Shown here piece after piece: positions 17,999 to 63,162 of a stretch of 64,000 nucleotides of DNA. Within the stretch, counting starts at the first letter, position 1; every line of letters starts with the position of its first letter. This stretch comes from Patescibacteria group bacterium. Lineage in GTDB: Bacteria; Patescibacteriota; Minisyncoccia; UBA6257; UBA9933. Under the pieces are notes generated by a model. It was not told the DNA's origin. It did not search any database and saw nothing but the letters and a program-made list of their open reading frames with translations. Both the position numbers and the translations under genes were made by a program. The stretch spans positions 92,061-156,060 of the forward strand of contig JBBTPY010000001.1 of the NCBI GenBank assembly GCA_038065955.1. The letters are read 5' to 3'.

Positions 17999-18005
17999 TT
18001 TTATG

Positions 18006-18077
18006 CGTCCCCACAAGGAATCGAACCTTGATCTTGAGTTCCGCAAACTCACACTCTATCCATTGAGCTATGGGGAC
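18006..18077 (-). tRNA. tRNA-Arg (GCG inferred)
   Basis: Revcomp GTCCCCATAGCTCAATGGATAGAGTGTGAGTTTGCGGAACTCAAGATCAAGGTTCGATTCCTTGTGGGGACG; anticodon stem TGAGT/ACTCA, loop TTGCGGA. Confidence 0.65.
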
Positions 18078-18082
18078 ATTTT

Positions 18083-18601
18083 CTAAAATCTTATCAATTT
18101 TAACAAAACATCGCTCATTGAAATTTTAATCTCCTCTCGCGGCAAAAATTTCAAAAGCGATTCGCTGATTTTTAATTCATCTTCGGCGAAAATATTAATC
18201 TTTAAATACGGCGCAAATTTTGATTTAAGCCTTAAAACCAATTCTTTATATTCCTCGTTAACCGGATGAATGTCAAAACAGTCAATTTCTTTAAATGAAT
18301 AAAACTTTTCGTCCGCTTTCTTGCCGGCTTCCCCGTCGGGAAATTTAATTAATATGCCGTCACCGTCTATCTTAAATTCCCAAACAGCCGGAAAACGATT
18401 AGCGAAAGAAAATACCACCGCTTCGGCAATTACCACAAAAATCGCAAATAAAAAATTCTTCTGCCATAAAGCCAGTATCAATAAAATTGCGGCAATAATC
18501 AAGCTCAGCCAATACCAAGAAACATCCTTGACGGTATATTCAAATTCCGGCGCCCGCCAGACGAACGGCTCAACTTGTTTTTTAATATTTTTATTCGCCA
18601 T
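18083..18601 (-). CDS. Hypothetical membrane protein (172 aa)
   Basis: Two N-terminal TM helices; no recognisable motif; the start codon abuts the tRNA-Ser 3' end. Confidence 0.5.
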   Translation of the reverse strand: MANKNIKKQVEPFVWRAPEFEYTVKDVSWYWLSLIIAAILLILALWQKNFLFAIFVVIAEAVVFSFANRFPAVWEFKIDGDGILIKFPDGEAGKKADEKFYSFKEIDCFDIHPVNEEYKELVLRLKSKFAPYLKINIFAEDELKISESLLKFLPREEIKISMSDVLLKLIRF

Positions 18602-18602
18602 G

Positions 18603-18684
18603 CGGAGGGTAGAGGAGTCGAACCTCTAAGGGCTTGCGCCCGCCGCTTTTCAAGAGCGGTGCCATGCCATTAGGCGAACCCTCC
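18603..18684 (-). tRNA. tRNA-Ser (TGA), type II
   Basis: Revcomp GGAGGGTTCGCCTAATGGCATGGCACCGCTCTTGAAAAGCGGCGGGCGCAAGCCCTTAGAGGTTCGACTCCTCTACCCTCCG; long variable arm, anticodon loop CTTGAAA. Confidence 0.75.
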
Positions 18685-18721
18685 ATACTAATATTAATGT
18701 ATATTATATAATAATTTTTCG

Positions 18722-18766
18722 AAAATTGGCAAAAAAAATATGGGGAAGCAGATATCTGCTTCCCCA
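18722..18766 (-). terminator. Rho-independent terminator of the 75-aa Cys-rich peptide gene
   Basis: Perfect palindrome ggggaagcagatatctgcttcccc followed on the minus strand by atatttttttt. Confidence 0.7.
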
Positions 18767-18889
18767 TAGAGAGGAGGAATGAAGGAATGGATAACCTTCA
18801 TTACTTTGGGGGGCTCTCGAGCCCACAAGCGTAAATCTCGAGAAAGCTTTACTTACGCTTATGGGGGTTAGCCACCCCACAAAGATTCA

Positions 18890-19117
18890 TTATCGTAAAA
18901 GTTCATTTTTACAATTACGATTTGCCTTAAGGCATGAAAACTTAGGTTTTGATTTGCAATCCTTTCTTTCAAGACCGCACTCCCCAATTTTGTTTATGTT
19001 TTTGATTTTTTGCTGAATCATAGTTGCTGTCGCGGCTATAAAAACGAGCTCTTTTCCATCACAAAATCCACTACGAATTCCCTCATTTATAAAATTAGCC
19101 ATATTGTTAAAATCCAT
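18890..19117 (-). CDS. Small Cys-rich protein (75 aa), hypothetical
   Basis: MDFNNMANFINEGIRSGFCDGKELVFIAATATMIQQKIKNINKIGECGLERKDCKSKPKFSCLKANRNCKNELLR; SD AAAGGAG 7 nt upstream; own terminator; 5 Cys in the C-terminal 30 aa. Confidence 0.5.
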   Translation of the reverse strand: MDFNNMANFINEGIRSGFCDGKELVFIAATATMIQQKIKNINKIGECGLERKDCKSKPKFSCLKANRNCKNELLR

Positions 19118-19302
19118 AACAGTCTCCTTTCAGATACAAAAACAAAAAAGGTTATTAAAGAAAAAACTATTCCCTCCTCAATTTAGTTAAGCAAATCCAT
19201 TCATCCATTCATATTTATCACCGCCTCCTTCCTTTTAAAATTATTTAAATGACCTATTAATATATTAGGCAGATTTTCGAAAAAGTCAACCCCTATCAAT
19301 TT

Positions 19303-19374
19303 TGGACCCGAGCGGGATCGAACCGCTGATCTCCTCATTGCAAATGAGGCATTCTACCACTGAACTACGGGCCC
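19303..19374 (-). tRNA. tRNA-Ala (TGC)
   Basis: Revcomp GGGCCCGTAGTTCAGTGGTAGAATGCCTCATTTGCAATGAGGAGATCAGCGGTTCGATCCCGCTCGGGTCCA; G3.U70 Ala identity pair. Confidence 0.8.
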
Positions 19375-19463
19375 GATTATTTTGGACTCGGCGAGAACCC
19401 AGCACAACAGCAAAACTGTGTGTACGGGGCGCGTTGAACTCGTGTCTCCATCCATCACCATTC

Positions 19464-19537
19464 TGGTGGACCCACCGGGAATTGAACCCGAACCTCGGCA
19501 ATGCGAATGCCGCGTAATGCCGTTTTACTATGGGCCC
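19464..19537 (-). tRNA. tRNA-Ala (CGC)
   Basis: Revcomp GGGCCCATAGTAAAACGGCATTACGCGGCATTCGCATTGCCGAGGTTCGGGTTCAATTCCCGGTGGGTCCACCA; G3.U70, CCA encoded. Confidence 0.65.
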
Positions 19538-19551
19538 ACCGCAAAGGTGAA

Positions 19552-19590
19552 GGACGAATGCGACGTATTGCCAACTATACTACAAGCCCG
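19552..19590 (-). pseudogene. Truncated tRNA 5' half (acceptor plus D-arm only) between tRNA-Pro(CGG) and tRNA-Ala(CGC)
   Basis: Revcomp GGGCTTGTAGTATAGTTGGCAATACGTCGCATTCGTCC has a canonical acceptor/D-arm but no anticodon, T-arm or 3' acceptor partner before the next tRNA begins. Confidence 0.45.
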
Positions 19591-19602
19591 TTTATCGCTT
19601 TG

Positions 19603-19674
19603 TCGGGCCGCCGAGAATCGAACTCGGTCTCTACGCACCCGAAGCGCATGTACTACCGGTATACTACGGCCCGA
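19603..19674 (-). tRNA. tRNA-Pro (CGG)
   Basis: Revcomp CGGGCCGTAGTATACCGGTAGTACATGCGCTTCGGGTGCGTAGAGACCGAGTTCGATTCTCGGCGGCCCGA; flanked by inverted repeat aaagcgat that extends the acceptor helix by about 10 bp. Confidence 0.7.
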
Positions 19675-19713
19675 CAAAGCGATGAACCCCGAAGCGCTCA
19701 CACTACGCCCGAT

Positions 19714-21294
19714 TTACTTCACATAATACTTCTTTTTTATCTCTGCTTCAATCCCCCCTTCAAATTCTTCCTTCTTTTCACGGCTAATTCTTGCCGATTT
19801 TTCAAGTTCAGCGTCCGATAATTTCCCTAAACTTTTAATTCTAAATTCCAAATTCTCTTTCGTGTTTTTTTCGGGATTTTCAATAACTTCATCCAGTAAA
19901 ACGGACAAAATCCAACCGATACGCGGACCCGGCGCAATGCCTAAAATTTTCATCACGTCTTCGCCGTTGACTTTCAGCATTTTCGGCGAAATCGGGTCTT
20001 GTTTCACTTTTTCAATCATAAAAAGCAGATGTCTTAATTTATAAGGCACGGCTTTCGGCACGCCGGAACCGATTCTATCCGCTTCGCGAATCTTGATTAA
20101 ATCGTTAACGTTTTCCGGGCCCACGCGGGCCAAAAATCTACGAACTCCGGCTTCCGTCACTTCGCCGACATTGTAATAAAAAAGGTGGCAACGGACCAAA
20201 TGAACGACTTTCTCCGCAATTTCTTTCGAAAAACGCAATCTATCCATCGCGGCCGCCGTTATTTTCGCGCCGACAACCTCGTGATTGTAAAAAGTGCAAT
20301 CAGGTCCTTCGCCGGCTTTAGTCCGAGGCTTACCGATATCGTGGAACAAAGCGGCTAAGCGAATCTCCAAAGAATAATTTTTCTTGACGGCGTAATCCAA
20401 AGCGCGCAAATTATGCTCCCAAATCGTGTAAATATGGTGCTTATTCTGGCCATTGCCTATTCCCTCGCGCAAATCCGGCATAATGTATTTCAACAAACCC
20501 GCCTCTTCAAGCAATTCAACTCCATTTTTCGCCGACGGCGTCATTATTATTTTTATAAACTCATCGCAAATCCTTTCTTTGGCTATCATTTCAAGCAACC
20601 CGGCTTCTTTTTTAATCGCTTCCATCGTTTTTTCTTCAATCGCAAAATTAAGCTGAACCGCGAATCTCACCCCCCGCATCAGCCGCAAAGCGTCCTCGTT
20701 AAAACGCTTTTCGGAATTCCCGACGGTGCGAATTATTCTATTTTTTAAATCTTCCTGTCCATTATAAGTATCAATAATTTTGAATTTTGAATTGTAATTT
20801 TGATTTTTGATTTTTGATTTTTGAATTTCTATTGCCATGGCATTTATAGTAAAATCCCGCCTGCTTAAATCTTCTTCAATAGTCTTGGCGAATTTAATCT
20901 CATCCGGATGCCTTTTATCCGTATATTTGCCCTCTAATCTGAATGTTGTTATTTCAACGACATTCAGCGCAGAACTACGCTGACTTGACGCTGAATTACG
21001 CTGAATTTCTTCTGCGTCTTTCTGCTTACCATCTGTGAGAGTCTGCGGTTTTAGTTTCACTAAAACAGTACCGAATTTATTTTCATAAACGGTGTCGGCA
21101 AAAATTTTCTGGATTTCTTCCGGTTTTGCGTTTGTGGCGACATCCCAATCTTTTGGTTCGCGATTCATTAAAATATCCCTTACGCACCCCCCGACAAGAT
21201 ATGCCTGAAAATTCGCTTTTTGTAATTTTTCAGATATATTTATAACTTCTTCGGGGATACTCGTCCTGAATTTTATTGAAGGATTGAAACTCAT
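19714..21294 (-). CDS. cca: CCA-adding tRNA nucleotidyltransferase / poly(A) polymerase family with HD domain
   Basis: LVGGCVRDILMNREPKDWDVATNAKPEEIQ nucleotidyltransferase head, HD domain HDIGK; contains in-frame repeat-derived inserts (20778-20828, 20964-21008). Confidence 0.85.
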   Translation of the reverse strand: MSFNPSIKFRTSIPEEVINISEKLQKANFQAYLVGGCVRDILMNREPKDWDVATNAKPEEIQKIFADTVYENKFGTVLVKLKPQTLTDGKQKDAEEIQRNSASSQRSSALNVVEITTFRLEGKYTDKRHPDEIKFAKTIEEDLSRRDFTINAMAIEIQKSKIKNQNYNSKFKIIDTYNGQEDLKNRIIRTVGNSEKRFNEDALRLMRGVRFAVQLNFAIEEKTMEAIKKEAGLLEMIAKERICDEFIKIIMTPSAKNGVELLEEAGLLKYIMPDLREGIGNGQNKHHIYTIWEHNLRALDYAVKKNYSLEIRLAALFHDIGKPRTKAGEGPDCTFYNHEVVGAKITAAAMDRLRFSKEIAEKVVHLVRCHLFYYNVGEVTEAGVRRFLARVGPENVNDLIKIREADRIGSGVPKAVPYKLRHLLFMIEKVKQDPISPKMLKVNGEDVMKILGIAPGPRIGWILSVLLDEVIENPEKNTKENLEFRIKSLGKLSDAELEKSARISREKKEEFEGGIEAEIKKKYYVK

Positions 21295-21368
21295 TAAAAT
21301 CTATTATAAACTAAAAACTAAACAACTGAAAATTTAATTGACTAAATTTACGCTCACCCCTTTCTTTT

Positions 21369-21440
21369 GCCCTTGTAGTGAAATGGATATCACGACAGGC
21401 TTCGAACCTGTTATTGGGGGTTCGAATCCCTCCAAGGGCA
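21369..21440 (+). tRNA. tRNA-Arg (TCG inferred)
   Basis: GCCCTTGTAGTGAAATGGATATCACGACAGGCTTCGAACCTGTTATTGGGGGTTCGAATCCCTCCAAGGGCA; anticodon loop CTTCGAA. Confidence 0.65.
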
Positions 21441-21449
21441 CATAAAAAG

Positions 21450-21522
21450 GCATCCCTAGCTCAATTGGCAGAGCAAATCCCTCTTAAGGATGAGGTTCTG
21501 GGTTCGACTCCCAGGGGATGCA
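21450..21522 (+). tRNA. tRNA-Lys (CTT)
   Basis: GCATCCCTAGCTCAATTGGCAGAGCAAATCCCTCTTAAGGATGAGGTTCTGGGTTCGACTCCCAGGGGATGCA. Confidence 0.75.
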
Positions 21523-21533
21523 CATAAAATTTT

Positions 21534-21608
21534 GCGGGTATCGTATAGTGGCCATTATGCGACCTTGCCAAGGTCGAGATAGGGGTTCGATTCCCCTTAC
21601 CCGCTCCA
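21534..21608 (+). tRNA. tRNA-Gly (GCC), CCA encoded
   Basis: GCGGGTATCGTATAGTGGCCATTATGCGACCTTGCCAAGGTCGAGATAGGGGTTCGATTCCCCTTACCCGCTCCA. Confidence 0.8.
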
Positions 21609-42590: not shown

Positions 42591-43022
42591 ATGATTATCG
42601 CCGCCAATAAACGAGCGTATTTTGACTACCAAATTCTTGAAACTTTTGAGGCCGGGATTGAATTAAAAGGATTTGAAGTTAAATCAATAAAAAACGGCAG
42701 GATAAACCTCGCCGGTTCTTACGCCGTCATCCGCGATAATCAAGCGTGGCTTCTTAACGCCGATATTCCGGCTTACCAACCGAAGAACGCGCCGAAAAAT
42801 TACGATTCCAAAAGAACGCGGCGGCTTTTACTGAAAAAATTGGAAATAAAAAACTTAATCGGCCGCATTCATGAAAAAGGCTTGACTTTGACTCCTTTAA
42901 AAGTTTATACTAAAAATCACAGAATAAAGATGGAAATCGGGTTAGGGAAAAGCAGAAAAAAAGCGGACAAAAGAGAATTAATAAAGAAAAGGGATGTTAA
43001 ACGAGAAATCAGACGGGAATGA
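42591..43022 (+). CDS. smpB: SsrA-binding protein
   Basis: 143 aa; N-terminal NKRAYFDY...E.GIEL.G.EVKS and basic C-terminal tail. Confidence 0.9.
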   Translation: MIIAANKRAYFDYQILETFEAGIELKGFEVKSIKNGRINLAGSYAVIRDNQAWLLNADIPAYQPKNAPKNYDSKRTRRLLLKKLEIKNLIGRIHEKGLTLTPLKVYTKNHRIKMEIGLGKSRKKADKRELIKKRDVKREIRRE

Positions 43023-43029
43023 CAGGAAT

Positions 43030-43390
43030 CGATGACAGCACTTTTATAAAATCGCAAGCCGAGGACGATTCGTCACCTCGTCAATCATCGAATCAAAATC
43101 ATATCTGCCAAAAACAGATTAGCCAATTATTTGGCTCCCGCTTTCGCTTTCGCCTAAGCGGCATCCGCTTTTAATCGCTTGAATTAAAAGACCGGGTGTA
43201 ATATTTTAAGCTATGGTTGATGTTCCGCCGAAAACATCTGCTGAAAATTATCGGCAAAGAGTTTTGAAGATTTCGTTAAGTTTTAACTTCTAAATTCTAT
43301 ATCCTAACTTGACTAAGCTCGTAGAAATTTTATAAATTTATTGTCAGACGGGGCTTCAATGCCCCCATTTCCACACAAATTTAAAAATTA
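43030..43390 (+). ncRNA. ssrA: Candidate tmRNA (ssrA) region immediately downstream of smpB; speculative
   Basis: No protein ORF. A short frame GCC AAU UAU UUG GCU CCC GCU UUC GCU UUC GCC UAA (43122-43157) = ANYLAPAFAFA*, tag-like and preceded by an A-rich tract with UAG as in known tmRNAs. Stable hairpins after the stop; 3' GGGGCUUCAAUGCCCC T-arm-like hairpin. The 5'/3' acceptor pairing could not be confirmed. Confidence 0.3.
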
Positions 43391-54543: not shown

Positions 54544-56736
54544 TTATAATTTGATGGATAATAACTTTGACGTGCCGTCTTCGTTCATCGTTACGCCGTA
54601 CAGAACATTGGCGGCTTCCATTACCGTCCGGTTATGAGTAACGATAATAAACTGCGTCTGATTGGAAAAATCTTTTATTAAATTGGAAAAACGCCGAGAA
54701 TTTTTTTCGTCCAAAGCGGCGTCAATTTCATCTAAAACCAGAAACGGCGGTGGACTGACGGCAATCAAAGCAAAAAGCGCGGCAATGGAAATCAAACTTT
54801 TTTCGCCGCCAGAAAGCGCCTCTAAATCGATTATTTTCTTTTTCGGCAGATTAACTTCAATCTCAATGCCGGATTTTTCTTCCGTTTTTTCTTCTTGTTC
54901 TTTAATTTCGAATTTATTATTATTTTCCACAATTTCTTCGTTGTCGTCGGTTGTCGGTCGTCGGTCGTAAGTTTTTAATTTTAGTTTCGCGCCGCCGCCT
55001 TCAAACATCAACCGGAAGAAATAATTAAACTTTTCATTGATTAAATGAAGGGCGTTTTTGAATTCCAAATGAATTTTTTCCTTGAGCTCGCGAATTATAA
55101 TTTTAAGGTCTTGAACCGCTTTTCCTAAATCTTCAACCTGTAAAGATAAAAAATTATAATGATTTTCCGTTTCCTTAGCTTCTTTAATCAAGGCGCCGTC
55201 AATCTCGCCGATGCTTGCCAATTCTCCGCGAAGTTTCAGCATCCGCCTTTCGGTCTCGTCCATTTTTAAAGCGCCGAAATCCGCCGAAGATTGAAAGCCG
55301 CCCGCCTGCTGACGAGGCAAAGAAGAAAATTCTTTCAAATTTCTGCTCGCTTGGAGCAATTGGCCTTCCAAATCATGAAGCCTTAAATCTATTCTTTCTT
55401 TCGCGAATAAAAGTTTCTGTTTTAAATTTTCCAAACCGGAAATTTCGTCTTTTTTCTTTTCCAGCTCTTCAAAGGCTTTTTGAAAAGAACTGTTAAATTC
55501 TTCCAATTCTACCGTAATTCGCGATTCTTCATCGCCTAATTCTTGAAGCTCCGCCTCAATAACGCTAATTTCCTTAATCAAAGTGTTTTTTGATTTTTCC
55601 AATTCATTTATTTCCAACGACTTTTTATTAAGCGGCTGATTAAAAAAATCGCCGATTTTTAACATTAATTCCTTAATTATGGCGGCCGCTTTGTTAAAAT
55701 CGGCGGACGCCAGACATTTTTCAAGACCGTCTTTGACGCCCCTAAGAATAACAAGCGCTTCCCTATTTTCAAAAGCGTCATCGGAAATCGCCACGGCGCT
55801 TAAAATTTCCAATTTCGCCTCAAACCGGCTCAATTCTTTCTGAATTTTCAACTGCTTAGCCAATAAATCATTTTTAAGATTCCTGATTTCGTTAAGATTA
55901 TGGCGTTTTGAACCGCTTTCTATTTTTTTAACTTCGTTTTCCAGAATTTTAAGCTCGTCGGCGGCGATAATAATTTTCTTTTCCAATTCTTCAAATTGAG
56001 GAGCAGTTGTTTTTCTTTCATCTAAAATTTCGCCGACTTTAAAAGAAAAATATCCGTCTTCCAATTCTTTTAATTCTTTTTCCACTTCAGCCCGCTTTTC
56101 AAATTTGGCGGTTTGGCGTTTTAATAATCTAAGCCGGGGAAGAACTTCCTCAGTCATCGCTTTAACTTTTTCCAAATTAACCAGAGTGTTTTCCAATTTT
56201 CGCTCGGCTTCCGATTTTTTCAACTGAAATTCCCTTAACCCCAGAATCTCCTCAATCATCGCCTTTCTTTCTTCGGCCGAAGCCCTTACAAATAAATCGC
56301 TGGAACCCTGATTGATAATCGTCAAACCCTTGGTGCCTAATCGGGCGCGGGCGAAAAAATCAACAATATCTTTCAGCCTTACTTCCGATTTATTTAAAAA
56401 ATATTGAGAAACGCCATCGCGCGCCAGCCGGCGCGAAATAACAACTTCTTTAAACTCAACAGGGAAAAATCCCGAAGAATTGTCAAAAGTAAGCCCGACC
56501 GAAGCCATTCCAAGACGCGATTTTTTCGGTGTGCCGGCGAAAATAAGATTTTCGCTTTTAGATCCTCTTAAATTTTTAGATTCCCGCTCCCCTAAAAGCC
56601 AGCGAATTCCGTCAATAATATTTGATTTCCCGCTTCCATTCGGGCCGACAATGGCGGTAATGCCATCGGGAAATTCCAAAATCGTTTTTGAAGCGAAAGA
56701 TTTGAAACCGTTAAGTTCAAGGGATTTTAAAAACAT
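54544..56736 (-). CDS. smc: SMC-family chromosome segregation ATPase (reduced, ~730 aa)
   Basis: N-terminal Walker A FPDGITAIVGPNGSGKSNI, long coiled-coil, C-terminal LSGGEKSLISIAALFAL signature and Walker B LVLDEIDAALD; start probably MFLKSLELNGFKSF; in-frame gtcggtcg repeat insert at 54938-54968. Confidence 0.8.
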   Translation of the reverse strand: MFLKSLELNGFKSFASKTILEFPDGITAIVGPNGSGKSNIIDGIRWLLGERESKNLRGSKSENLIFAGTPKKSRLGMASVGLTFDNSSGFFPVEFKEVVISRRLARDGVSQYFLNKSEVRLKDIVDFFARARLGTKGLTIINQGSSDLFVRASAEERKAMIEEILGLREFQLKKSEAERKLENTLVNLEKVKAMTEEVLPRLRLLKRQTAKFEKRAEVEKELKELEDGYFSFKVGEILDERKTTAPQFEELEKKIIIAADELKILENEVKKIESGSKRHNLNEIRNLKNDLLAKQLKIQKELSRFEAKLEILSAVAISDDAFENREALVILRGVKDGLEKCLASADFNKAAAIIKELMLKIGDFFNQPLNKKSLEINELEKSKNTLIKEISVIEAELQELGDEESRITVELEEFNSSFQKAFEELEKKKDEISGLENLKQKLLFAKERIDLRLHDLEGQLLQASRNLKEFSSLPRQQAGGFQSSADFGALKMDETERRMLKLRGELASIGEIDGALIKEAKETENHYNFLSLQVEDLGKAVQDLKIIIRELKEKIHLEFKNALHLINEKFNYFFRLMFEGGGAKLKLKTYDRRPTTDDNEEIVENNNKFEIKEQEEKTEEKSGIEIEVNLPKKKIIDLEALSGGEKSLISIAALFALIAVSPPPFLVLDEIDAALDEKNSRRFSNLIKDFSNQTQFIIVTHNRTVMEAANVLYGVTMNEDGTSKLLSIKL

Positions 56737-57406
56737 ATAGCGCTTTTTTCGCCGCTTCAACTTCGGCTTCTTGTTTGGAAAGGCCTTCGCCTTCGGCGGC
56801 TAAATTTCCGTTAAAATAAACGCCGACTTTAAATATCTTGGCATGGTCGGGACCGCGCTCGGAAAGCACTGAATAAGTCGGCGTACATTTAAATTTTTCC
56901 TGAATAATTTCCTGAAGAAGGCTTTTTGGGTCTCTATAAAGTTTTTTCTCCATCACCTCATCCGTCCGCGCCATCACAAAACGAACTATGAAATTTTTAG
57001 CGGCTTCATAACCGGAGTCGAGATAAATAGCGCCGAACAAAGCTTCAAAAGCGTTGGCGGAAATCACTTCTCTGGCCTTGCCGGTATCTTTTGACTCTCC
57101 CCGAGAAAGTAAAATATATTCGTTTAAATTAACGTCTTTTGAAACTTCCGCCAGCATTTGATAATTTACCAAAGCCGCCCGAATACCGGTGAGCTCTCCT
57201 TCGCTTAAATCCGGAAAACGGCTGAAAAGATTTTCTGTCGCCGCCAATTCCAAAACCGCGTCGCCCAAAAATTCCAGCCGTTCATTATGAGGAACACCCC
57301 ATGAAGGATTTTCATTAAGATAAGAACGATGAGTTAAAGCTTCTTTAAGAAGATTCTTATTTTTAAATTCAACGCCGAGTTTTTTTTCCAATAAAGATAA
57401 ATCCAC
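56717..57406 (-). CDS. rnc: Ribonuclease III
   Basis: ERLEFLGDAVLEL RNase III signature plus C-terminal dsRBD. Confidence 0.9.
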   Translation of the reverse strand: MDLSLLEKKLGVEFKNKNLLKEALTHRSYLNENPSWGVPHNERLEFLGDAVLELAATENLFSRFPDLSEGELTGIRAALVNYQMLAEVSKDVNLNEYILLSRGESKDTGKAREVISANAFEALFGAIYLDSGYEAAKNFIVRFVMARTDEVMEKKLYRDPKSLLQEIIQEKFKCTPTYSVLSERGPDHAKIFKVGVYFNGNLAAEGEGLSKQEAEVEAAKKALYVFKIP

Positions 57407-57490
57407 TAAATTTAGGATTTAGGATTTAGGATTTAGGATTTAGGACAATTTAAATCACCCTAAATTCTAAATTCTATATTCTAAATTTTA
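57401..57490. repeat. Inverted arrays of a 7-bp repeat (ggattta x4 / taaattc x4) forming a long imperfect palindrome between rnc and nusB
   Basis: aaatttaggatttaggatttaggatttaggatttaggacaatttaaatcaccctaaattctaaattctatattctaaatttta. Confidence 0.7.
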
Positions 57491-57910
57491 TTTATTTTCC
57501 ATTTCCTTATACACCGTTCCCAAAACGCCGTTGATAAATTTTCGGGAATTGGCGCCGCCGAAATTTTTCGCCAATTCAATAGCTTCGTTAATAGCCACTT
57601 TTTCCGGCACTTCATTTTTATCGGCGTATAATAATTCATAAATCCCTATTCGCAACACATTTCTGTCAACGATTGAAATCTGGCTAAGCGGCCACTGGGG
57701 GGCGGCCTGCGTTATAATTTTATCCAAAGAATCAAGATTCTCCGTTACTCCCTTAACAATCCGCCAGACAAATTCCGGCTCATTGATGCCGGCGCCAAAT
57801 TCTTCTATGTTGCGCTCAACAATCTCGGTCAAATCAGGTTTTTTATTGTAAAAGTCCCATTCGTAAAGAGATTGAAGAACGATTGAACGAGCTAAATGCC
57901 GTGTAGCCAT
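57488..57910 (-). CDS. nusB: Transcription antitermination factor NusB
   Basis: 140 aa; [17 protein letters not shown] ... all-helical NusB fold pattern. Confidence 0.85.
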
Positions 57911-57911
57911 T

Positions 57912-58106
57912 TTATTTCTTCACTCTCAATTTCGGTTCTTTAACTATCCTTCCTTTATAATTTCCGCACTGACCGCACATTTTATGCGGCAAAACCGGCG
58001 ACTGACAATTCGCGCAAGCGAAAATACCTGACGGTTTCAACGCCAAATGAGACCTTCTGCGGCCGACTTTTGATTTAGTATGATGTTTTACCGGTACGCC
58101 TCCCAT
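57912..58106 (-). CDS. rpmF: 50S ribosomal protein L32 (zinc-ribbon type)
   Basis: 64 aa; [14 protein letters not shown] ... CANCQSP...CGQCG, bL32-like with four Cys. Confidence 0.7.
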
Positions 58107-58173
58107 TGTTTAGTGATTAGTAAATAGTGATTAGTAATTAGTATTTAGGATTTTTGGAAAAAAGTCAATAAAT

Positions 58174-58761
58174 TTATTTTTTCCAATCTCCGGAATTAAA
58201 TCTATTATTCCCTTGCCTATGCCATTCGTGCGGGTCAGAATCAAGCAATTCTTTCCATAATTTTTTGGCGGATTCCGTATAAAGCTTGCTGTTTCCGACA
58301 TGTTCCCTAATTTCCTTAAATGTACTGCCGATAGTATTACCTTTGGAAAACTGCTCTTTTAATTCAAAATCAACGTCCAAATTATCCGCGTCCTTGATTA
58401 TTTTCGCCTCCAGCGTTTCTTTCTTATCGCATTCTTTCCATAATTCAATAAATTCTTTTTCTATCGCCGTATTTTTTAAAATATCGCCGATGGCATTTGA
58501 CTCTTTTCTTTCGGTATATTGTCTTGACAGATAATTTACGTCTCCGGTCCGGCTTTCTGCGATATCATGGACTAAAGCCATTTTTAACAATTTCCCGATA
58601 TCTTTCACACCTTCGCGTTCCGCTAAAATTATGGCTATCCAAGCGACCCTTAAAGTATGTTCAGAAACATTCGCGAAATCGGCATTCAAAAAATGCCTCC
58701 ATGTTCTTGGTATAAATCGCAAACAACCAATTTCATAAAGAAAATTTATATCTTTTTTCAT
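58174..58761 (-). CDS. HD-domain phosphohydrolase (YfbR-like 5'-deoxynucleotidase family)
   Basis: HTLRVAWIAIILAE...LVHDIAESRTGD metal-binding H..HD..D motifs. Confidence 0.75.
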   Translation of the reverse strand: MKKDINFLYEIGCLRFIPRTWRHFLNADFANVSEHTLRVAWIAIILAEREGVKDIGKLLKMALVHDIAESRTGDVNYLSRQYTERKESNAIGDILKNTAIEKEFIELWKECDKKETLEAKIIKDADNLDVDFELKEQFSKGNTIGSTFKEIREHVGNSKLYTESAKKLWKELLDSDPHEWHRQGNNRFNSGDWKK

Positions 58762-58845
58762 ATTATCATTATAATATATAATATAAAATTCATAAAATAA
58801 AAAGGCGCCGCGGGATTTCTCCTTTGGCGCCGAGTTTTTTGTTTT

Positions 58846-59673
58846 TTATCTGTTTAAAAGAATTTCTTCGTTTTTCTTTAATTGATTTAAAACAATATGC
58901 CAGCCGTGTTCATACACGTGAACGTCTTTGCCCGAAACAATCATCGGCCCGTCTTCCAGCCCCAAAACGTCTTTCATATATTCTTTGAGCAATTGGAATC
59001 CGCCGACATTCTCCGGAAAGCCGTCCCTGAGATCCCATGAACGGAAATATATCCAAAAGTGCAATTTACCGTTTTCTACCCAACAGTCAATACTGCGAAG
59101 ACATTGAGAACTCACTTGGACTTGCTCATTTTTATTCCATACATTCGTTATATATCTTGACCATAAAGGCTTCCCCGTATTGCGATCCGTAACCAAAATC
59201 ATTTCATGAAGATCAACTTCCCTATTGTAATGGAATAAAGATTCCGGCCGCCCGACAATCATATGACCGCATGCCGATCCAAAACCATGTTTTTTAAAAT
59301 AAGCTATTACTTCTTCCACTTGCCACCAAAGGTCCTGTCCGTAAGTATAATGCTGGTCAGGCGCGACATCTGGAGTTATTAATGATTCAAAATATTTATA
59401 AATCTTTTCTTCCGTGGTCGGCGGCGGAATCCCCGAACCCTCTGGAATATAAACAGCTAAATCTCTGATCCATGGTTTATGAATTTCAATTACCAAAGGC
59501 AATGTTAACCGATGCTGCCCTTCAAAACTTCCGGCTTCAACTTTATATTTTCTTCCATCCGTTATCACTTTGTCGAGAGCCACGTACCAGCAATAACTGA
59601 TACTGGAACCAACAATATGATGAACCATCGGCGTAAAACCCGGTTCAATCAATAAACGATTATTTTCTTTCAT
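58846..59673 (-). CDS. Thymidylate synthase family protein (ThyA / dNMP hydroxymethylase-like), divergent
   Basis: C-terminal half aligns with the ThyA core: RYITNVWN (cf. RRIIVSAWN), SSQCLRSIDCWVENGKLHFWIYFRSWDLRDGFPENVGGFQLL (cf. [42 protein letters not shown]) with catalytic Cys, and GKDVHVYEH (cf. GDTHLYSNH); N-terminal half divergent. Confidence 0.5.
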   Translation of the reverse strand: MKENNRLLIEPGFTPMVHHIVGSSISYCWYVALDKVITDGRKYKVEAGSFEGQHRLTLPLVIEIHKPWIRDLAVYIPEGSGIPPPTTEEKIYKYFESLITPDVAPDQHYTYGQDLWWQVEEVIAYFKKHGFGSACGHMIVGRPESLFHYNREVDLHEMILVTDRNTGKPLWSRYITNVWNKNEQVQVSSQCLRSIDCWVENGKLHFWIYFRSWDLRDGFPENVGGFQLLKEYMKDVLGLEDGPMIVSGKDVHVYEHGWHIVLNQLKKNEEILLNR

Positions 59674-59784
59674 AATTCACCTCCTATTTAATTTTAAATT
59701 TAATTCTATAAATTAGAATAGAATAAAACAAAATTTTGTCAATCATTGAAAAATATAAATAAATTTACGATACTTAAAATTAAT

Positions 59785-60231
59785 ATGAATAAAAATCGGA
59801 AAATATTCGTTAATCCCCGATTTGCCAGAAAAGGAGAATACAAGAAAGTAATTCAAAGTATCGTCGCCGACGGGAAATGTCCTTTTTGCCCGGAAAATTT
59901 TAAATACCACAAAAATCCGATTATTAAAAAAACTAAAAATTGGTTTATAACCAAATCAAGTTGGCCGTATAAAAACACAAAATATCACTTTTTGATAATC
60001 GGCAAAAAACACAAAGAAAAATTCAAAGATTTAACTTTAAAAGACTTCAAAGAAATAAAAAATCTTGCCGGCTGGACGATTAAAAAATTCAAAATAAAAG
60101 GCGGCGGTTTAACTCTCCGTTTTGGCGATACTAATCATACTGGGTCAACGGTAAATCATCTTCATTTTCATCTTATTATTCCAAAGTTAAAATCAAGAAA
60201 ATCTTTGCCGGTAAATTTTCCAATCGGATAA
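59785..60231 (+). CDS. HIT-family (histidine triad) nucleotide hydrolase/transferase with zinc-binding CPFC
   Basis: HLHFHLIIP histidine triad (HxHxHxx) and CPFCPENF; alternative longer start at 59746. Confidence 0.65.
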   Translation: MNKNRKIFVNPRFARKGEYKKVIQSIVADGKCPFCPENFKYHKNPIIKKTKNWFITKSSWPYKNTKYHFLIIGKKHKEKFKDLTLKDFKEIKNLAGWTIKKFKIKGGGLTLRFGDTNHTGSTVNHLHFHLIIPKLKSRKSLPVNFPIG

Positions 60232-60259
60232 GTTCATTAAAAAAAGCCCGGACACTTTT

Positions 60260-61117
60260 TCAAGCGCCGGGCAAATCTATCGGACAATAGATTATTTCCA
60301 CTTTCTTTGCTTTTAATATCTCTTCTCCATCTAAAGAGGCATGGCCAGAAGAAAAGAATAACCGTTTTATCCCCGCATTAGCCACCATATTGCTGCAAAT
60401 TGGGCAAGGAAAAACAGTTACATACAAATCTGTCCCTTTTAGCGATATTCCATCGCGAGCGGCGCCGGAAATTATGGCTTGTTCCGCATGAATAGCCGAA
60501 GAAAATTCGCTCATTTTTCCGGCCTCTATCACGTCTCGCGGGTCGCCATTAAAATAAGGAGCGTGTTCCGTTGGAAGATGCCTATTATACGCCAGAATAA
60601 CTTTTCCGTCTTTCACAAGCGCGGCTCCCACTTGCCTCCACCAATCGGAAGTTTTCTTAATCTCTCCCGCCGTTAAAGACATAAATTTCTTTGATATTGC
60701 GTCTTCAGCTTTACGATGATAATTAACGTCTTTTCTGGAAAATACCGATTTGGAGTCCCATCTTAAAAACGCGGTGTCAAAAGATATTTTTTCGCCCGGC
60801 AAATATTTTTCGGCGAATTTTCGGACAATTTCATCATTTACCAGAATTATTTCTTGTCTTTTTATCTTTTTTATTTCTGATAATGATTGCCGCGTCAAAA
60901 TCCTGTAAACGCGCCTTGCCCATCTCATTGGAACCAATACTTTCATCGCCTCAATTACATCGCAAGGCCGCAGTGCGCGAATATCGCGGATGTCGGAAAA
61001 TTCATTAACAAATTCTTCGCTTAAAATATACACCATATCAACTGTTTCCGCGTATTTCTTAAATACCGCCAAATAACCGGAATGAATAACCGGAATATGA
61101 GATATTAAAATTTTCAT
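60260..61117 (-). CDS. dCMP/cytidine deaminase domain protein with ~150-aa N-terminal extension
   Basis: C-terminal zinc-binding SAIHAEQAIISGAARDG...VTVFPCPICSNMVANAGIKRL (H-A-E ... PCxxC CDA-fold); N-terminal domain unassigned. Confidence 0.7.
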   Translation of the reverse strand: MKILISHIPVIHSGYLAVFKKYAETVDMVYILSEEFVNEFSDIRDIRALRPCDVIEAMKVLVPMRWARRVYRILTRQSLSEIKKIKRQEIILVNDEIVRKFAEKYLPGEKISFDTAFLRWDSKSVFSRKDVNYHRKAEDAISKKFMSLTAGEIKKTSDWWRQVGAALVKDGKVILAYNRHLPTEHAPYFNGDPRDVIEAGKMSEFSSAIHAEQAIISGAARDGISLKGTDLYVTVFPCPICSNMVANAGIKRLFFSSGHASLDGEEILKAKKVEIIYCPIDLPGA

Positions 61118-61677
61118 TTTAAATCCTCCGCCTTAAGCAATCCCAAATCTTTAAGTTGCTTAACCATCGGATTCAAAAATTCCCTCATAAACCGCCTAAT
61201 CATATTGGAAGTACTTGTTTCCGCTTGGCGCGGCAATATTTGCACCTCGTTGACGAATTTCTTAATATCTTCTATCTGTTCCGCTGAATAAGAATCTTCT
61301 ACCGTGACAAAAACATCGGGTTTTATAATTTTAAGCAACTCATACTGCCATTTTCCCTTATCGTCAACATCGTCAACCAATGTAACGATATCAACAAACG
61401 TAAAATAGCTAAGCATCTCCATTCTTTCTCTTTCTGGCACCATTGGCCTAAGCGGATCTTTGTATAATTTAATCGCTCTGTCACTATCCGTCCCCGCAAC
61501 TAATATATCCCCAAACTCTTTCGCTTTGCGCAAATAACGGCCGTGGCCGATATGCACCATATCCCATGAACCAATAGTGGCAACGATGCGCGCGCCCGCG
61601 AGTCTAAAACCCTCGGTTATTTTAGATAGAGCTTCCTGTCCAAGAATAACTTTCTTATTATGATCCCTAATAAACAT
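61114..61677 (-). CDS. Cytidylyltransferase-like nucleotidyltransferase (HxGH motif)
   Basis: VATIGSWDMVHIGHGRYL HIGH-type nucleotidyltransferase signature; overlaps the downstream deaminase gene by 4 bp (operon). Confidence 0.6.
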   Translation of the reverse strand: MFIRDHNKKVILGQEALSKITEGFRLAGARIVATIGSWDMVHIGHGRYLRKAKEFGDILVAGTDSDRAIKLYKDPLRPMVPERERMEMLSYFTFVDIVTLVDDVDDKGKWQYELLKIIKPDVFVTVEDSYSAEQIEDIKKFVNEVQILPRQAETSTSNMIRRFMREFLNPMVKQLKDLGLLKAEDLK

Positions 61678-61689
61678 AATCCCTCCTTT

Positions 61690-62067
61690 TTACTTTTCAC
61701 CCGTTATTTCGCAGATGACATTTTTGAATTCTTCCAAATTGAACGGCTTCAGAATAATTCTTTTTATGCCGATATTCCTTGTTTCTTCGTTTTCTTCCAT
61801 ATAATGGTTGGCCGTCATAAGAATAACGGGGATGTTCGGATAATTTTCTTTCACGAACTTAGCCACTTCAAAACCGTTTTTTCCGGGAGACATGTTATAA
61901 TCGGTAATCACAAGGTCTATTGCCCCGTTTTCATTTAAAATCAATTTCGTTCCTTCTCTGCCTTCCGACGCTTCAAATACCTCCAAATCTTGAAACCCCA
62001 TATCCTTGATTATTCTTTTAACAATAAGTCTGACATTTTCTTCATCATCAATCACTAAAATTTTCAT
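61690..62067 (-). CDS. Stand-alone response-regulator receiver (CheY-like) domain protein
   Basis: KILVIDDEENVRLIV...DLVITDYNMSPGKNGFEV...PVILMTAN: receiver Asp and T/K signature; no output domain. Confidence 0.8.
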   Translation of the reverse strand: MKILVIDDEENVRLIVKRIIKDMGFQDLEVFEASEGREGTKLILNENGAIDLVITDYNMSPGKNGFEVAKFVKENYPNIPVILMTANHYMEENEETRNIGIKRIILKPFNLEEFKNVICEITGEK

Positions 62068-62165
62068 ATCTTTTCCTCCTTTCATTCAAAATTTCTTATA
62101 AAATTGTTAATTTTAAGACTCTTTGCGAGTCTTTCCTGCTCAAACAAATAACACGGATTTTTATA

Positions 62166-62777
62166 TTAGGCAAGAGGGGTTTTAAAACTTCTTCTGTGAA
62201 TGGGCGAAGGGCCGTATTTTTTGAGCGCTATGGCGTGTTTTTTCACGCCATAGCCAACATTATGAATAAAATCGTATCGCGGATATTTTTTATGAAGTTT
62301 TTTCATCAACTTGTCGCGATGGACTTTGGCGACAATAGAAGAGAGAGAAATCGCCGGAATTTTTTCGTCGCCTCGTATTACACATCTAACATCTGACATT
62401 TGACATTTGACATTAAAACGCAAACCGCCGTCTAAAAATATTTTTACCTTAGTGGCTAAACCCAGGTGGCTATTGGCTAATTTTTTAAACGCGCGGCCGG
62501 CCGCTAAATTGGCGGCTTGAGAGATATTGATTTTATCAATGATTTTCGGCGAAACCGACGCGATTGCGTAAGGAATTTTTTGTTTTTTAATAAAATCAAA
62601 CCAAGCTTCGCGCTGTTTCGGCGAAAGCTTTTTTGAATCCCTTAATTTTAGTTTGGAGTTTGGAGTTTTGAGTTTAGAATTTGCCTGAATAGCCGCGGCG
62701 GCAACGGTTACCGGTCCGGCAAGCGCTCCCCGCCCAACTTCATCAATACCAATAATAAAACCCGCCCTACTCTTCAT
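62166..62777 (-). CDS. rnhB: Ribonuclease HII
   Basis: GIDEVGRGALAGPV catalytic motif; repeat-derived inserts ANSKLKTPNSKLKL (62648-62685) and octamers at 62387-62415. Confidence 0.85.
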   Translation of the reverse strand: MKSRAGFIIGIDEVGRGALAGPVTVAAAAIQANSKLKTPNSKLKLRDSKKLSPKQREAWFDFIKKQKIPYAIASVSPKIIDKINISQAANLAAGRAFKKLANSHLGLATKVKIFLDGGLRFNVKCQMSDVRCVIRGDEKIPAISLSSIVAKVHRDKLMKKLHKKYPRYDFIHNVGYGVKKHAIALKKYGPSPIHRRSFKTPLA

Positions 62778-63162
62778 TTATAATCTCCTGAACCTTTTTA
62801 ACCGTTATTTCCAAGTCTTCAAATTTTTTAAGATAACCGCTGGCGCCGAGATTTTTGGCAAAATGTTCATCAATACCCGCGCCGGCCATTGTCCCTCCTA
62901 AATTGGTCAAAAATACGGTTTTCGGTAATTTCCGGCCAAAACCTTTTTTAAGGCGCTCAAAAACTTCCAGTCCGTCAATTCCGGGCATTGAAATATCCAA
63001 AAGGATTAAATCCGGTTTTTCTTTAAAAACCTGTTTCAGAGATTCTTCGGGGTCAAAAAAACCTTTCACCTCAAAACCGGCATTTTTGAGCGCTGTTTCA
63101 AAAATACTCAAAAAGGAAGTTTCATCGTCAATAATTACTATTTTCTTTTTTTGATTATTCAT
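62767..63162 (-). CDS. Stand-alone response-regulator receiver (CheY-like) domain protein
   Basis: KIVIIDDETSFLSIF...DLILLDISMPGIDGLEVFERL; start probably MNNQKKK (the ORF-track start at 63225 would overlap fba). Confidence 0.8.
   Translation of the reverse strand: MNNQKKKIVIIDDETSFLSIFETALKNAGFEVKGFFDPEESLKQVFKEKPDLILLDISMPGIDGLEVFERLKKGFGRKLPKTVFLTNLGGTMAGAGIDEHFAKNLGASGYLKKFEDLEITVKKVQEIINEE

Follow-up and report, generated by a model that had tools for sequence, protein, structure and literature searches.

A methanogen-like short ThyA in a probable dCMP-to-dTMP gene cluster of a groundwater Patescibacterium

Thymidylate synthesis is essential and a classic drug target, and textbooks list two enzymatic solutions for it, ThyA and ThyX; the ultra-small Patescibacteria are thought to depend on salvaged nucleotides. 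ThyA is considered to be coupled to the dihydrofolate reductase (DHFR) FolA as one unit, and the loss of folA is a known hallmark of ThyX genomes (PMC9931769). Among the phage enzymes related to ThyA, an acidic or polar residue at position L143 (Escherichia coli numbering, used here for all canonical positions) correlates with hydroxymethyl products, and the 5-hydroxy-deoxycytidine monophosphate (5-hydroxy-dCMP) synthases RB69 gp48/AfhB carry D169N and N177D (PMC13326640). Here we describe five neighbouring genes within a stretch of 64,000 nucleotides (the window) from a Patescibacteria group bacterium (GenBank assembly GCA_038065955.1, contig JBBTPY010000001.1, positions 92,061 to 156,060). 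They encode a short ThyA-like protein, a dCMP deaminase of a “long” form with an additional N-terminal domain (N-domain), a cytidylyltransferase-family nucleotidyltransferase (NT), a HIT-superfamily protein and an HD protein (Table 1).

The cluster is best read as a module of a groundwater Patescibacterium for the synthesis of thymidylate (dTMP) from dCMP via deoxyuridine monophosphate (dUMP), a reading to which we give a probability of roughly 65%. The C-terminal CDA domain of the deaminase would convert dCMP into dUMP, which the ThyA-like enzyme would then methylate at C5 with methylene-tetrahydrofolate as the one-carbon donor. In this enzyme Cys191 would act as the nucleophile, Asn222 would read the uracil, His252 and Tyr254 would hold the deoxyribose, and Arg211 and Ser212 the phosphate. 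That the ThyA-like protein is the thymidylate synthase of the organism is argued by its position in a conserved supercluster and its constant pairing with dUMP-producing enzymes, as well as by the serine hydroxymethyltransferase (SHMT) and FolD genes that neighbour it in sister operons and by an intact site for uracil and deoxyribose phosphate. Read in this way, the pathway is ordinary, although its synthase comes from a distinctive branch of a clade that has hardly been studied, and the outcome would be a useful re-annotation rather than a discovery.

Only the C-terminal ~100 residues of the ThyA-like protein resemble canonical ThyA in Pfam and PDB sequence searches, the match to PF00303 being restricted to residues 168-269 (45.5 bits, cutoff 24.3). 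The models for canonical ThyA score it at 37.5 bits (TIGR03284, cutoff 108.35) and 46 bits (NF002497, cutoff 327). The best model, and the sole one that spans the whole protein (residues 20-259), is the methanogen-type TIGR03283 (thy_syn_methano); the protein reaches 73.3 bits (cutoff 174.55) and is thus related to that family without belonging to it. Its roughly 27 close homologues (49-80% identity) are Patescibacterial, and the more distant relatives measure 214-269 amino acids (aa).

The residues expected to bind and attack dUMP are in place. C191 aligns to C146, R211 to R166 and S212 to S167, and the uracil and deoxyribose positions N177 and H207/Y209 are occupied by N222 and H252/Y254; all of these, together with Y111, R142 and S188, are invariant across an alignment of 24 close homologues. 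The canonical C146, R166, S167, D169, G173, N177, H207, Y209 and Y94 are kept both in the Patescibacteria and in the wider group of short sequences described below. Three diagnostic positions (L143, D169 and N177) were taken from PMC13326640 and applied to the family alignment. The D169 position is Asp214 in the window protein and Asp in 24 of the 27 family sequences (Asn in two, Glu in one), so that the Asn of the 5-hydroxy-dCMP synthases is not the rule there. The L143 position is filled by Ser188, which is neither bulky hydrophobic nor acidic, and by Asp in most of the short clade. Further substitutions, read from the alignment only, are F176 to E221, R126/R127 to A134/C135, H147 to Leu and Q165 to Phe. 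The short clade as a whole is without the W80/W83 segment, R126/R127 and the last 35-45 residues, which close the folate site in canonical ThyA. Taken with the residues that are kept, these losses leave the dUMP site and the machinery of covalent catalysis intact, but not the canonical folate and hydride-transfer apparatus. In canonical ThyA, hydride transfer from tetrahydrofolate (THF) requires W80, the closing C-terminus and L143.

Directly before the catalytic Cys, the protein carries a β-hairpin insertion that was found only in the nine Patescibacteria sequences of the MAFFT alignment. In the AlphaFold2 (AF2) model its strands comprise residues 156-162 and 169-176, and the predicted local distance difference test (pLDDT) values of the block are 68-91. 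The best structural matches of the model are AfhB (9iqc, 9iqu), a dCMP hydroxylase, and MilA; identity to the fold neighbours is 11-16%, and to the 5-hydroxylases 11-13%. This ranking probably reflects a shared minimal architecture and not a shared chemistry.

In a bootstrapped neighbour-joining tree of 220 aligned columns, with T4 gp42, RB69 gp48 and SPO1 gp29 from annotated phage genomes as references, the Patescibacteria sequences form one clade (88% bootstrap) nested in a “short ThyA” clade (100% bootstrap). The latter stands apart from canonical ThyA, T4 dCMP hydroxymethylase, RB69 5-hydroxy-dCMP synthase and SPO1 dUMP hydroxymethylase. At 90% identity it falls into at least 8000 clusters; it is common among Dehalococcoidia and Thermodesulfobacteriota, cultured Desulfacinum species included, and its members are labelled thymidylate synthase wherever a source names them. 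All sampled members fall under the TIGR03283 cutoff, the bacterial relatives reaching 77-103 bits. Within the clade, the Patescibacteria branch stands out by the ~38-residue hairpin, by S-S/T-Q-C in place of D-P-P-C and by the arginine of a VGRPE motif (R142).

These results can be set against an initial annotation of the window, which had placed the five open reading frames (ORFs) at the coordinates of Table 1 and in families that the Pfam scores confirm. It had also described the N-terminal half of the ThyA-like protein as unlike canonical ThyA, in agreement with the searches above. Its suggestion of a divergent position is borne out as well, since the protein lies outside canonical ThyA (37.5 bits with TIGR03284 and a split with 100% bootstrap) and outside the T4, RB69 and SPO1 enzymes, within the short clade. 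The catalytic Cys was correctly recognised; the core motifs read YFRSWD...GFPEN, and not YQRS-D/GxPxN as proposed. Of the folate-binding residues that it had asked about, D169 is kept, while W80/W83, L143, F176, the C-terminal closure and R126/R127 are not. It had further considered that the protein might belong to canonical ThyA among standard salvage enzymes: the protein does not, although the clade is called thymidylate synthase wherever it is named and the neighbours are mostly thymidylate-pathway genes.

A profile search with the short clade aimed at methanogen ThyA listed 120 matches, all of them 74-100% identical to the 215-aa query group; no authentic methanogen ThyA was among the matches listed, and the sole row naming an organism belonged to Dehalococcoidia. 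To our knowledge, enzymes related to the short clade are the only thymidylate synthase in methanogens. The clade extends over at least 8000 clusters plus the methanogens, and according to the literature searched, hardly any of its biochemistry has been characterised. A scan of the neighbours of short ThyA genes in Desulfacinum and Dehalococcoidia for DHFR or known partners was uninformative. In Dehalococcoidia the 215-aa short ThyA closes a conserved trio of genes, in which it is preceded by DUF6657 (196-197 aa) and a functionally unassigned protein of 233-235 aa (L055:3693-5648; L057:3677-5648); in L055 there is a 4-nt overlap between the latter gene and the start of ThyA.

The genomic neighbourhood was compared across about 140 related loci, collected through look-ups of exactly matching proteins and through scans of species-representative genomes and, with the NT alignment, of metagenomes, and annotated by phmmer/BLAST against a reference set drawn from those loci. 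The Patescibacteria ThyA-like gene almost always adjoins a dCMP deaminase, in two arrangements. Type I, to which the window belongs, consists of NT, long deaminase, HIT and ThyA-like genes with or without HD, and was found in eight distinct loci with two gene orders and unrelated flanks. Type II consists of a short deaminase, the ThyA-like gene, a small Cys-rich ORF, DCD, SHMT and FolD (L007, L021, L022, L026, L034). The triad of NT, long deaminase and HIT is far more widespread than the ThyA-like gene itself: among 60 non-redundant long-deaminase loci, NT is at most 100 bp away in 51, HIT is present in 57 and a thymidylate synthase in 54, the last being canonical ThyA in 44 cases and short-type in ten. 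Canonical loci of at least 6 kb (n=36) contain DHFR (34), dUTPase/DCD (16), SHMT (14) and Tmk (8), and FolD is also frequent.

Together, these neighbourhoods define a conserved Patescibacterial thymidylate supercluster. As the genes recur in eight short-ThyA loci and the triad in 60 loci, their co-location is far beyond chance, which supports the functional clustering that had been proposed for the five genes. Because the same triad adjoins canonical ThyA and DHFR in most relatives, the window is read as an in-situ replacement of both by a short-type synthase, indicating that this type is able to take their place in a minimal genome. BLAST/phmmer searches found no ThyX, canonical ThyA, DHFR, SHMT, FolD, Tmk or DCD within the 64-kb window.

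Several observations weigh against the synthesis of dTMP by this cluster. No thymidylate synthase equivalog model gives the ThyA-like protein a score above its curated cutoff, and by alignment the protein appears to lack the canonical folate and hydride-transfer determinants (the W80/W83 segment, ~40 C-terminal residues and R126/R127, with Ser188 for L143). PDB sequence searches retrieved no solved structure from the short clade, and the biochemistry of archaeal-type ThyA has been described as scarce (PMC9931769, PMC9012536). In loci of at least 6 kb, with ~8 kb covered on each side, a FolA-type DHFR lies beside none of 30 short-type synthases, versus 34 of the 36 canonical ones (Fisher p = 9e-17, uncorrected for relatedness, for two locus sets that were sampled by different routes and are phylogenetically clustered). 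This absence is unexpected, because the classical ThyA reaction releases dihydrofolate; SHMT and FolD occur with both types of synthase. Finally, one operon (L001:7518-10307) combines a short deaminase, the ThyA-like gene, an intact ThyX with its RHRxxS motif and Tmk, and another locus (L025:8001-9742) has two short-type paralogues in tandem, one of 257 aa with SSQC and one of 293 aa with DPPC. Both arrangements are hard to square with simple redundancy in tiny genomes.

It is conceivable, if unlikely, that the short-type enzyme makes dTMP without THF as the reductant, with a ThyX-like stoichiometry in a ThyA fold and a hydride delivered by flavin, a partner protein or another donor. Such DHFR-free chemistry would account for the counts of 34 of 36 against 0 of 30, in loci where the THF-recharging SHMT and FolD do occur with the short type, and it recalls the loss of folA that marks ThyX genomes when ThyA and FolA are otherwise coupled (PMC9931769). 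The hydride-transfer elements W80, C-terminal closure and L143 seem to be missing, and other short-type lineages carry a Cys-rich ORF or a fusion of MtrA-like and PterinBD domains. The absence of DHFR and of these elements suggests that the clade may not release dihydrofolate, and the anticorrelation raises a concrete question about the cofactor chemistry of the short type. On the other hand, with ~8 kb covered on either side, a DHFR could sit elsewhere or be of a non-homologous type, the two locus sets differ in their sampling and are phylogenetically clustered, the pterin-contacting Asp at D169 is retained, and the module of the window itself contains no flavin-binding motif, reductase or partner. 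Methanogens, moreover, have dedicated dihydromethanopterin reductases, which also counts against this chemistry.

The initial annotation had suggested either a deoxypyrimidine salvage route or a pyrimidine-modification pathway; the deoxypyrimidine part fits a module leading from dCMP via dUMP to dTMP, whereas the modification half finds little in its favour. We regard it as distinctly improbable that the ThyA-like protein is a dUMP C5-hydroxymethylase or another C5 modifier in a cluster making a non-canonical pyrimidine nucleotide. The small polar Ser188 in place of L143 (most members of the short clade have Asp there) does resemble the situation in the phage enzymes (PMC13326640), the C-terminal closure is absent, and the genuine ThyX adjoining the gene in L001 suggests a non-redundant function; hydroxymethylases regenerate THF, which would agree with the absence of DHFR from all short-type loci, and the fold neighbours include MilA and a dCMP hydroxylase. 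Yet the residue at the specificity position is the Asn that reads uracil, the D169 equivalent is Asp, and the sequences do not cluster with the T4, SPO1 and RB69 enzymes. The clade, with its at least 8000 clusters, is labelled thymidylate synthase wherever named, and no member of its Patescibacteria branch was found on IMG/VR viral contigs. The gene fills the exact slot of canonical ThyA in the supercluster, most of whose other representatives carry canonical ThyA with DHFR, SHMT, dUTPase and Tmk, and dedicated kinase, transferase (including hypermodification transferase) and dTTP-exclusion genes are absent nearby. We know of no cellular bacterium that makes hydroxymethyluracil (hmU) nucleotides by this route. 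A pyrimidine-nucleotide 5-hydroxylase that depends on flavin and O2, as phage AfhB and RB69 gp48 do, has only the slightest chance of being the answer, as the diagnostic substitutions are absent (Asp214 at D169, and Asn rather than Asp at N177), identity is 11-13%, the placement is outside the hydroxylase branch and the presence of SHMT and FolD as neighbours suggests that a folate donates the one-carbon unit; groundwater Patescibacteria are generally fermentative anaerobes. Two other candidates were set aside: a defence system, for which PADLOC gave only a partial CDA-motif match to its dCTP deaminase model, and a phage origin or phage modification cassette, for which tblastn matches in phages were distant (<60% identity, <70% of the query covered) and mostly annotated as thymidylate synthase. 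A modification pathway is thus not supported by the specificity residue, the tree, the lack of viral copies, of a defence match and of modification genes, and it keeps some residual weight through the Ser at L143, the open C-terminus, the adjacency to ThyX in L001 and the scarce biochemistry of the clade (PMC9931769, PMC9012536).

Two kinds of additional protein accompany short-type synthases elsewhere. In type II operons a Cys-rich ORF of 84-108 aa (CLxC...RLFFKPL.DETFT.C...RTGVSPAIK.H), which matches no Pfam family, is translationally coupled to the ThyA-like gene, its start lying at most a few bases from the stop codon of that gene, and precedes DCD, SHMT and FolD (L003:8786-9097, L007:6797-7072, L021, L022, L024, L026, L034); it may serve the short-type synthase as a partner or redox protein. 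A fusion protein of ~484-511 aa combines an MtrA-like domain (PF04208), a methanogen-type synthase core (TIGR03283 at 144-148 bits, just below the cutoff) and PterinBD-DUF4346 (PF14251). It occurs in an NT, HIT and long-deaminase neighbourhood in L081:9854-11308 (148 bits, with SHMT and FolD alongside), L083:7248-8699 and L085:12334-13869, none of which has a DHFR near the fusion. The fusion is also encoded in L047:10688-12145, L048:9433-10884 and L050:10770-12263; in Thermodesulfobacteriota it lies ~2 kb from a plain short ThyA. The coupling of Cys-rich ORFs and of MtrA/PterinBD fusions hints that the bare synthase core needs help with its pterin cofactor.

The catalytic half of the deaminase is a standard small dCMP deaminase, with HAE and PCxxC motifs that are invariant in the family and a fold match to dCMP deaminases; PF00383 covers residues 143-256, and no Pfam family matches residues 1-142. 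An unassigned N-domain had been noted from the start, and it indeed has no Pfam family, but its length is ~135-140 aa instead of 150 and it can now be assigned to the cytidylyltransferase (CT) fold. Its family conserves P9, H12-x-G14-Y15, R47 and F117-L-R-W-D121, a pattern suggestive of a preserved ligand site whose HIGH motif has degenerated. An exhaustive HMMER search with the N-domain returned 282 cluster representatives, mostly of 275-300 aa and with the same two-domain layout, and a word-indexed search with the N-domain alone returned only split copies from the same contig. A recent paralogy with the adjacent NT was rejected, hhalign giving a probability of 6% and thus a similarity at fold level only. 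No description of a deaminase combined with a CT-fold domain was found in the searched literature; the architecture is undescribed and has two conserved partners. The deaminase ORF is unbroken in the window and in two other, short-read assemblies, and L005 has an orthologue with 73% identity along the entire protein. In a long-read assembly (ERZ1286166 contig_106), a frameshift in the A-run at ~60865-60875 splits it into products of 84 aa and 220 aa (P0092, P0093).

The NT protein matches PF01467 (56 bits, cutoff 21) and scores 92.8 bits with the RfaE domain II model TIGR02199 (cutoff 181.5); as it stays under all equivalog cutoffs, its substrate cannot be assigned by family. The nearest solved sequences are cytidylyltransferases, with ECT as the best and HldC, TagD and CCT following, and H42-I-G44-H45 and T154-S-T-S157 are invariant in an alignment of 11 sequences. 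The HIT protein matches PF01230 (33.3 bits, cutoff 21.5) and PF11969 (30.4 bits), reaches the cutoff of no NCBIfam model and has weak structural matches to Hint/Fhit. Its motifs are the histidine triad HLHFHLII and a CPFC. The CxxC is conserved in 58 of 68 orthologues, and across ~68 loci the third position of the triad varies between His, Gln and Asn (HxHx[H/Q/N]) while the first two His are kept; in the same loci this residue showed no correlation with the type of thymidylate synthase. HxHxQ together with CxxC is a signature that we take to be associated with GalT-like transferases and phosphorylases. Orthologues and other assemblies start at the equivalent of M14 (ATG 59785).

NT and HIT are probably part of the pathway, because they are conserved beside the deaminase in very small genomes. 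As a weak guess, NT, HIT and the N-domain may serve the binding or conversion of a cytidine nucleotide. NT would turn a nucleoside triphosphate (NTP) into a nucleoside monophosphate conjugate (NMP-X) and pyrophosphate (PPi), and HIT would release NMP from NMP-X, thereby converting or sensing a cytidine nucleotide, for example dCTP to dCMP, and feeding or regulating the deaminase. The degenerate CT-fold N-domain might dock to NT by analogy with ECT, whose two CT domains dock together. The HD protein passes PF13023 and PF12917 and scores 30.9 bits with the equivalog NF003009 (cutoff 122). It fits a putative YfbR-like 5'-deoxynucleotidase, which would trim the pools of deoxynucleoside monophosphates (dNMPs), and is only an occasional or accessory member of the cluster: besides the window, only L005 and L015 have its gene next to the ThyA-like one, and it occurs in 3 of the 30 short-type loci and 2 of the 36 canonical ones.

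That Patescibacteria with so few genes still keep NT, HIT and an extra deaminase domain beside the synthase points to a step that is probably important for balancing pyrimidine deoxynucleotides. A more far-reaching view, in which the short ThyA enzymes are DHFR-free synthases that do not oxidise folate, a third solution beside ThyA and ThyX, and in which NT, the CT-fold deaminase and the CxxC-containing HIT form an unrecognised enzymatic or regulatory step delivering deoxycytidine nucleotides across Patescibacteria, is speculative and rather unlikely.

As for the layout of the locus, NT, with which the deaminase is co-translated, overlaps the start of the deaminase gene by 4 nt (ATGA), and the HIT gene forms a divergent pair with the ThyA-like gene and a convergent one with the deaminase gene. 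A promoter-like TTGACA-16-TATTCT for the ThyA-like gene (59742 to 59715, minus strand) and an AGGAGG ribosome-binding site (59680-59685) were identified as consensus matches only. Terminator-like sites amount to two in the region versus 4.0 expected from the consensus scan, which makes them weak evidence. A scan of positions 57000-63000 with Rfam gave only sub-threshold noise by E-value, and hence no riboswitch or other RNA element in the cluster. The flanks are housekeeping genes, with SMC, RNase III, NusB and L32 on one side and a response regulator, RNase HII and a class-II aldolase on the other. An identical ThyA-like protein is present on 23 contigs from Hainich groundwater metagenomes, one of them of 695 kb.

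Table 1. Features of the five-gene cluster, with positions counted from the first nucleotide of the window.
Feature	Position	Strand	Details
HD protein (YfbR-like/HD_3 type, putative 5'-deoxynucleotidase)	58174-58761	-	195 aa; PF13023 90 bits, PF12917 43.7 bits
ThyA-like protein, short-type (methanogen-like), putative thymidylate synthase	58846-59673	-	275 aa; PF00303 45.5 bits
β-hairpin insertion of the ThyA-like protein, ~38 residues (~aa 147-185)	59119-59235	-	MAFFT alignment, AF2 model
ThyA-like/HIT divergent intergenic region	59674-59784		promoter-like site and ribosome-binding site; consensus scan, direct reading
HIT-superfamily protein	ORF 59746-60231 (TTG start), likely 59785-60231	+	148 aa from ATG 59785
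dCMP deaminase, “long” form	60260-61117	-	285 aa; PF00383 at residues 143-256
Deaminase CDA-fold catalytic domain	60260-60691	-	zinc/catalytic motifs H210-A-E212 and P237-C238-x-x-C241
Deaminase N-domain (aa 1 to ~135)	60713-61117	-	cytidylyltransferase-like α/β fold; HxGY and FLRWD motifs
NT, cytidylyltransferase-family nucleotidyltransferase	61114-61677	-	187 aa; PF01467 56 bits; HIGH (HxGH) and TSTS motifs
Terminator-like hairpin and T-run, end of the NT-deaminase transcription unit	60251-60268	-	consensus scan, weak

Some features of the surrounding window may be mentioned as well. The SMC homologue (54544-56760, minus strand) has only 738 aa, with the SMC_N model covering residues 10-731; compared with ~1200 aa in typical bacterial SMC, this implies a much shorter coiled-coil arm. 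SmpB lies directly before the tmRNA gene (43015-43376, 111 bits; window 42591-43376), and nine of the 13 tRNA genes of the window sit within 18005-21608; both are ordinary features.

Among the known systems, the methanogen type of TIGR03283 and the wider short clade are closest to the window protein. They share the CLR..D, YFRSWD, GFP.N and KxxHxY motifs and the same absences (the W80/W83 segment, R126/R127 and the C-terminal 35-45 residues), and are monophyletic with 100% bootstrap. The window protein differs in being ~60 aa longer, with a hairpin of ~38 residues before the Cys, in having S-S/T-Q-C where the others have D-P-P-C, and in the VGRPE arginine R142; its host, unlike the methanogens, is a bacterium that presumably uses folate and not methanopterin. 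With canonical ThyA (EC 2.1.1.45; E. coli, L. casei) it has in common the catalytic Cys, R166/S167, D169, N177, H207/Y209 and Y94, as well as the genomic slot, but the similarity is limited to the C-terminal ~100 residues, W80/W83, the closure and R126/R127 are missing, and the short type has a DHFR neighbour in none of 30 loci. The phage C5 modifiers (T4 gp42, SPO1 gp29, RB69 gp48/HY126 AfhB) and MilA resemble it in a minimal synthase fold without the canonical C-terminal closure and in a non-hydrophobic residue at the L143 position. In contrast, T4, RB69 and MilA have Asp where the window protein has Asn at N177, RB69/AfhB have Asn where it has Asp at D169, and T4 gp42, SPO1 gp29 and RB69 gp48 fall in a separate clade, the window gene being located in a cellular housekeeping context.

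For the deaminase, the nearest described enzymes are the small unregulated dCMP deaminases (cyanophage S-TIM5 4p9c; T4 Cd; the ComEB type of S. mutans), to which the window form adds the ~135-aa N-domain of CT fold and the company of separate NT and HIT genes. ECT offers a parallel for the pairing of an active with a degenerate CT domain, represented in the window by NT with HxGH and the N-domain with HxGY, encoded by overlapping genes; unlike in ECT, the two CT-fold units belong to different polypeptides, the degenerate unit being part of a fusion with a deaminase.

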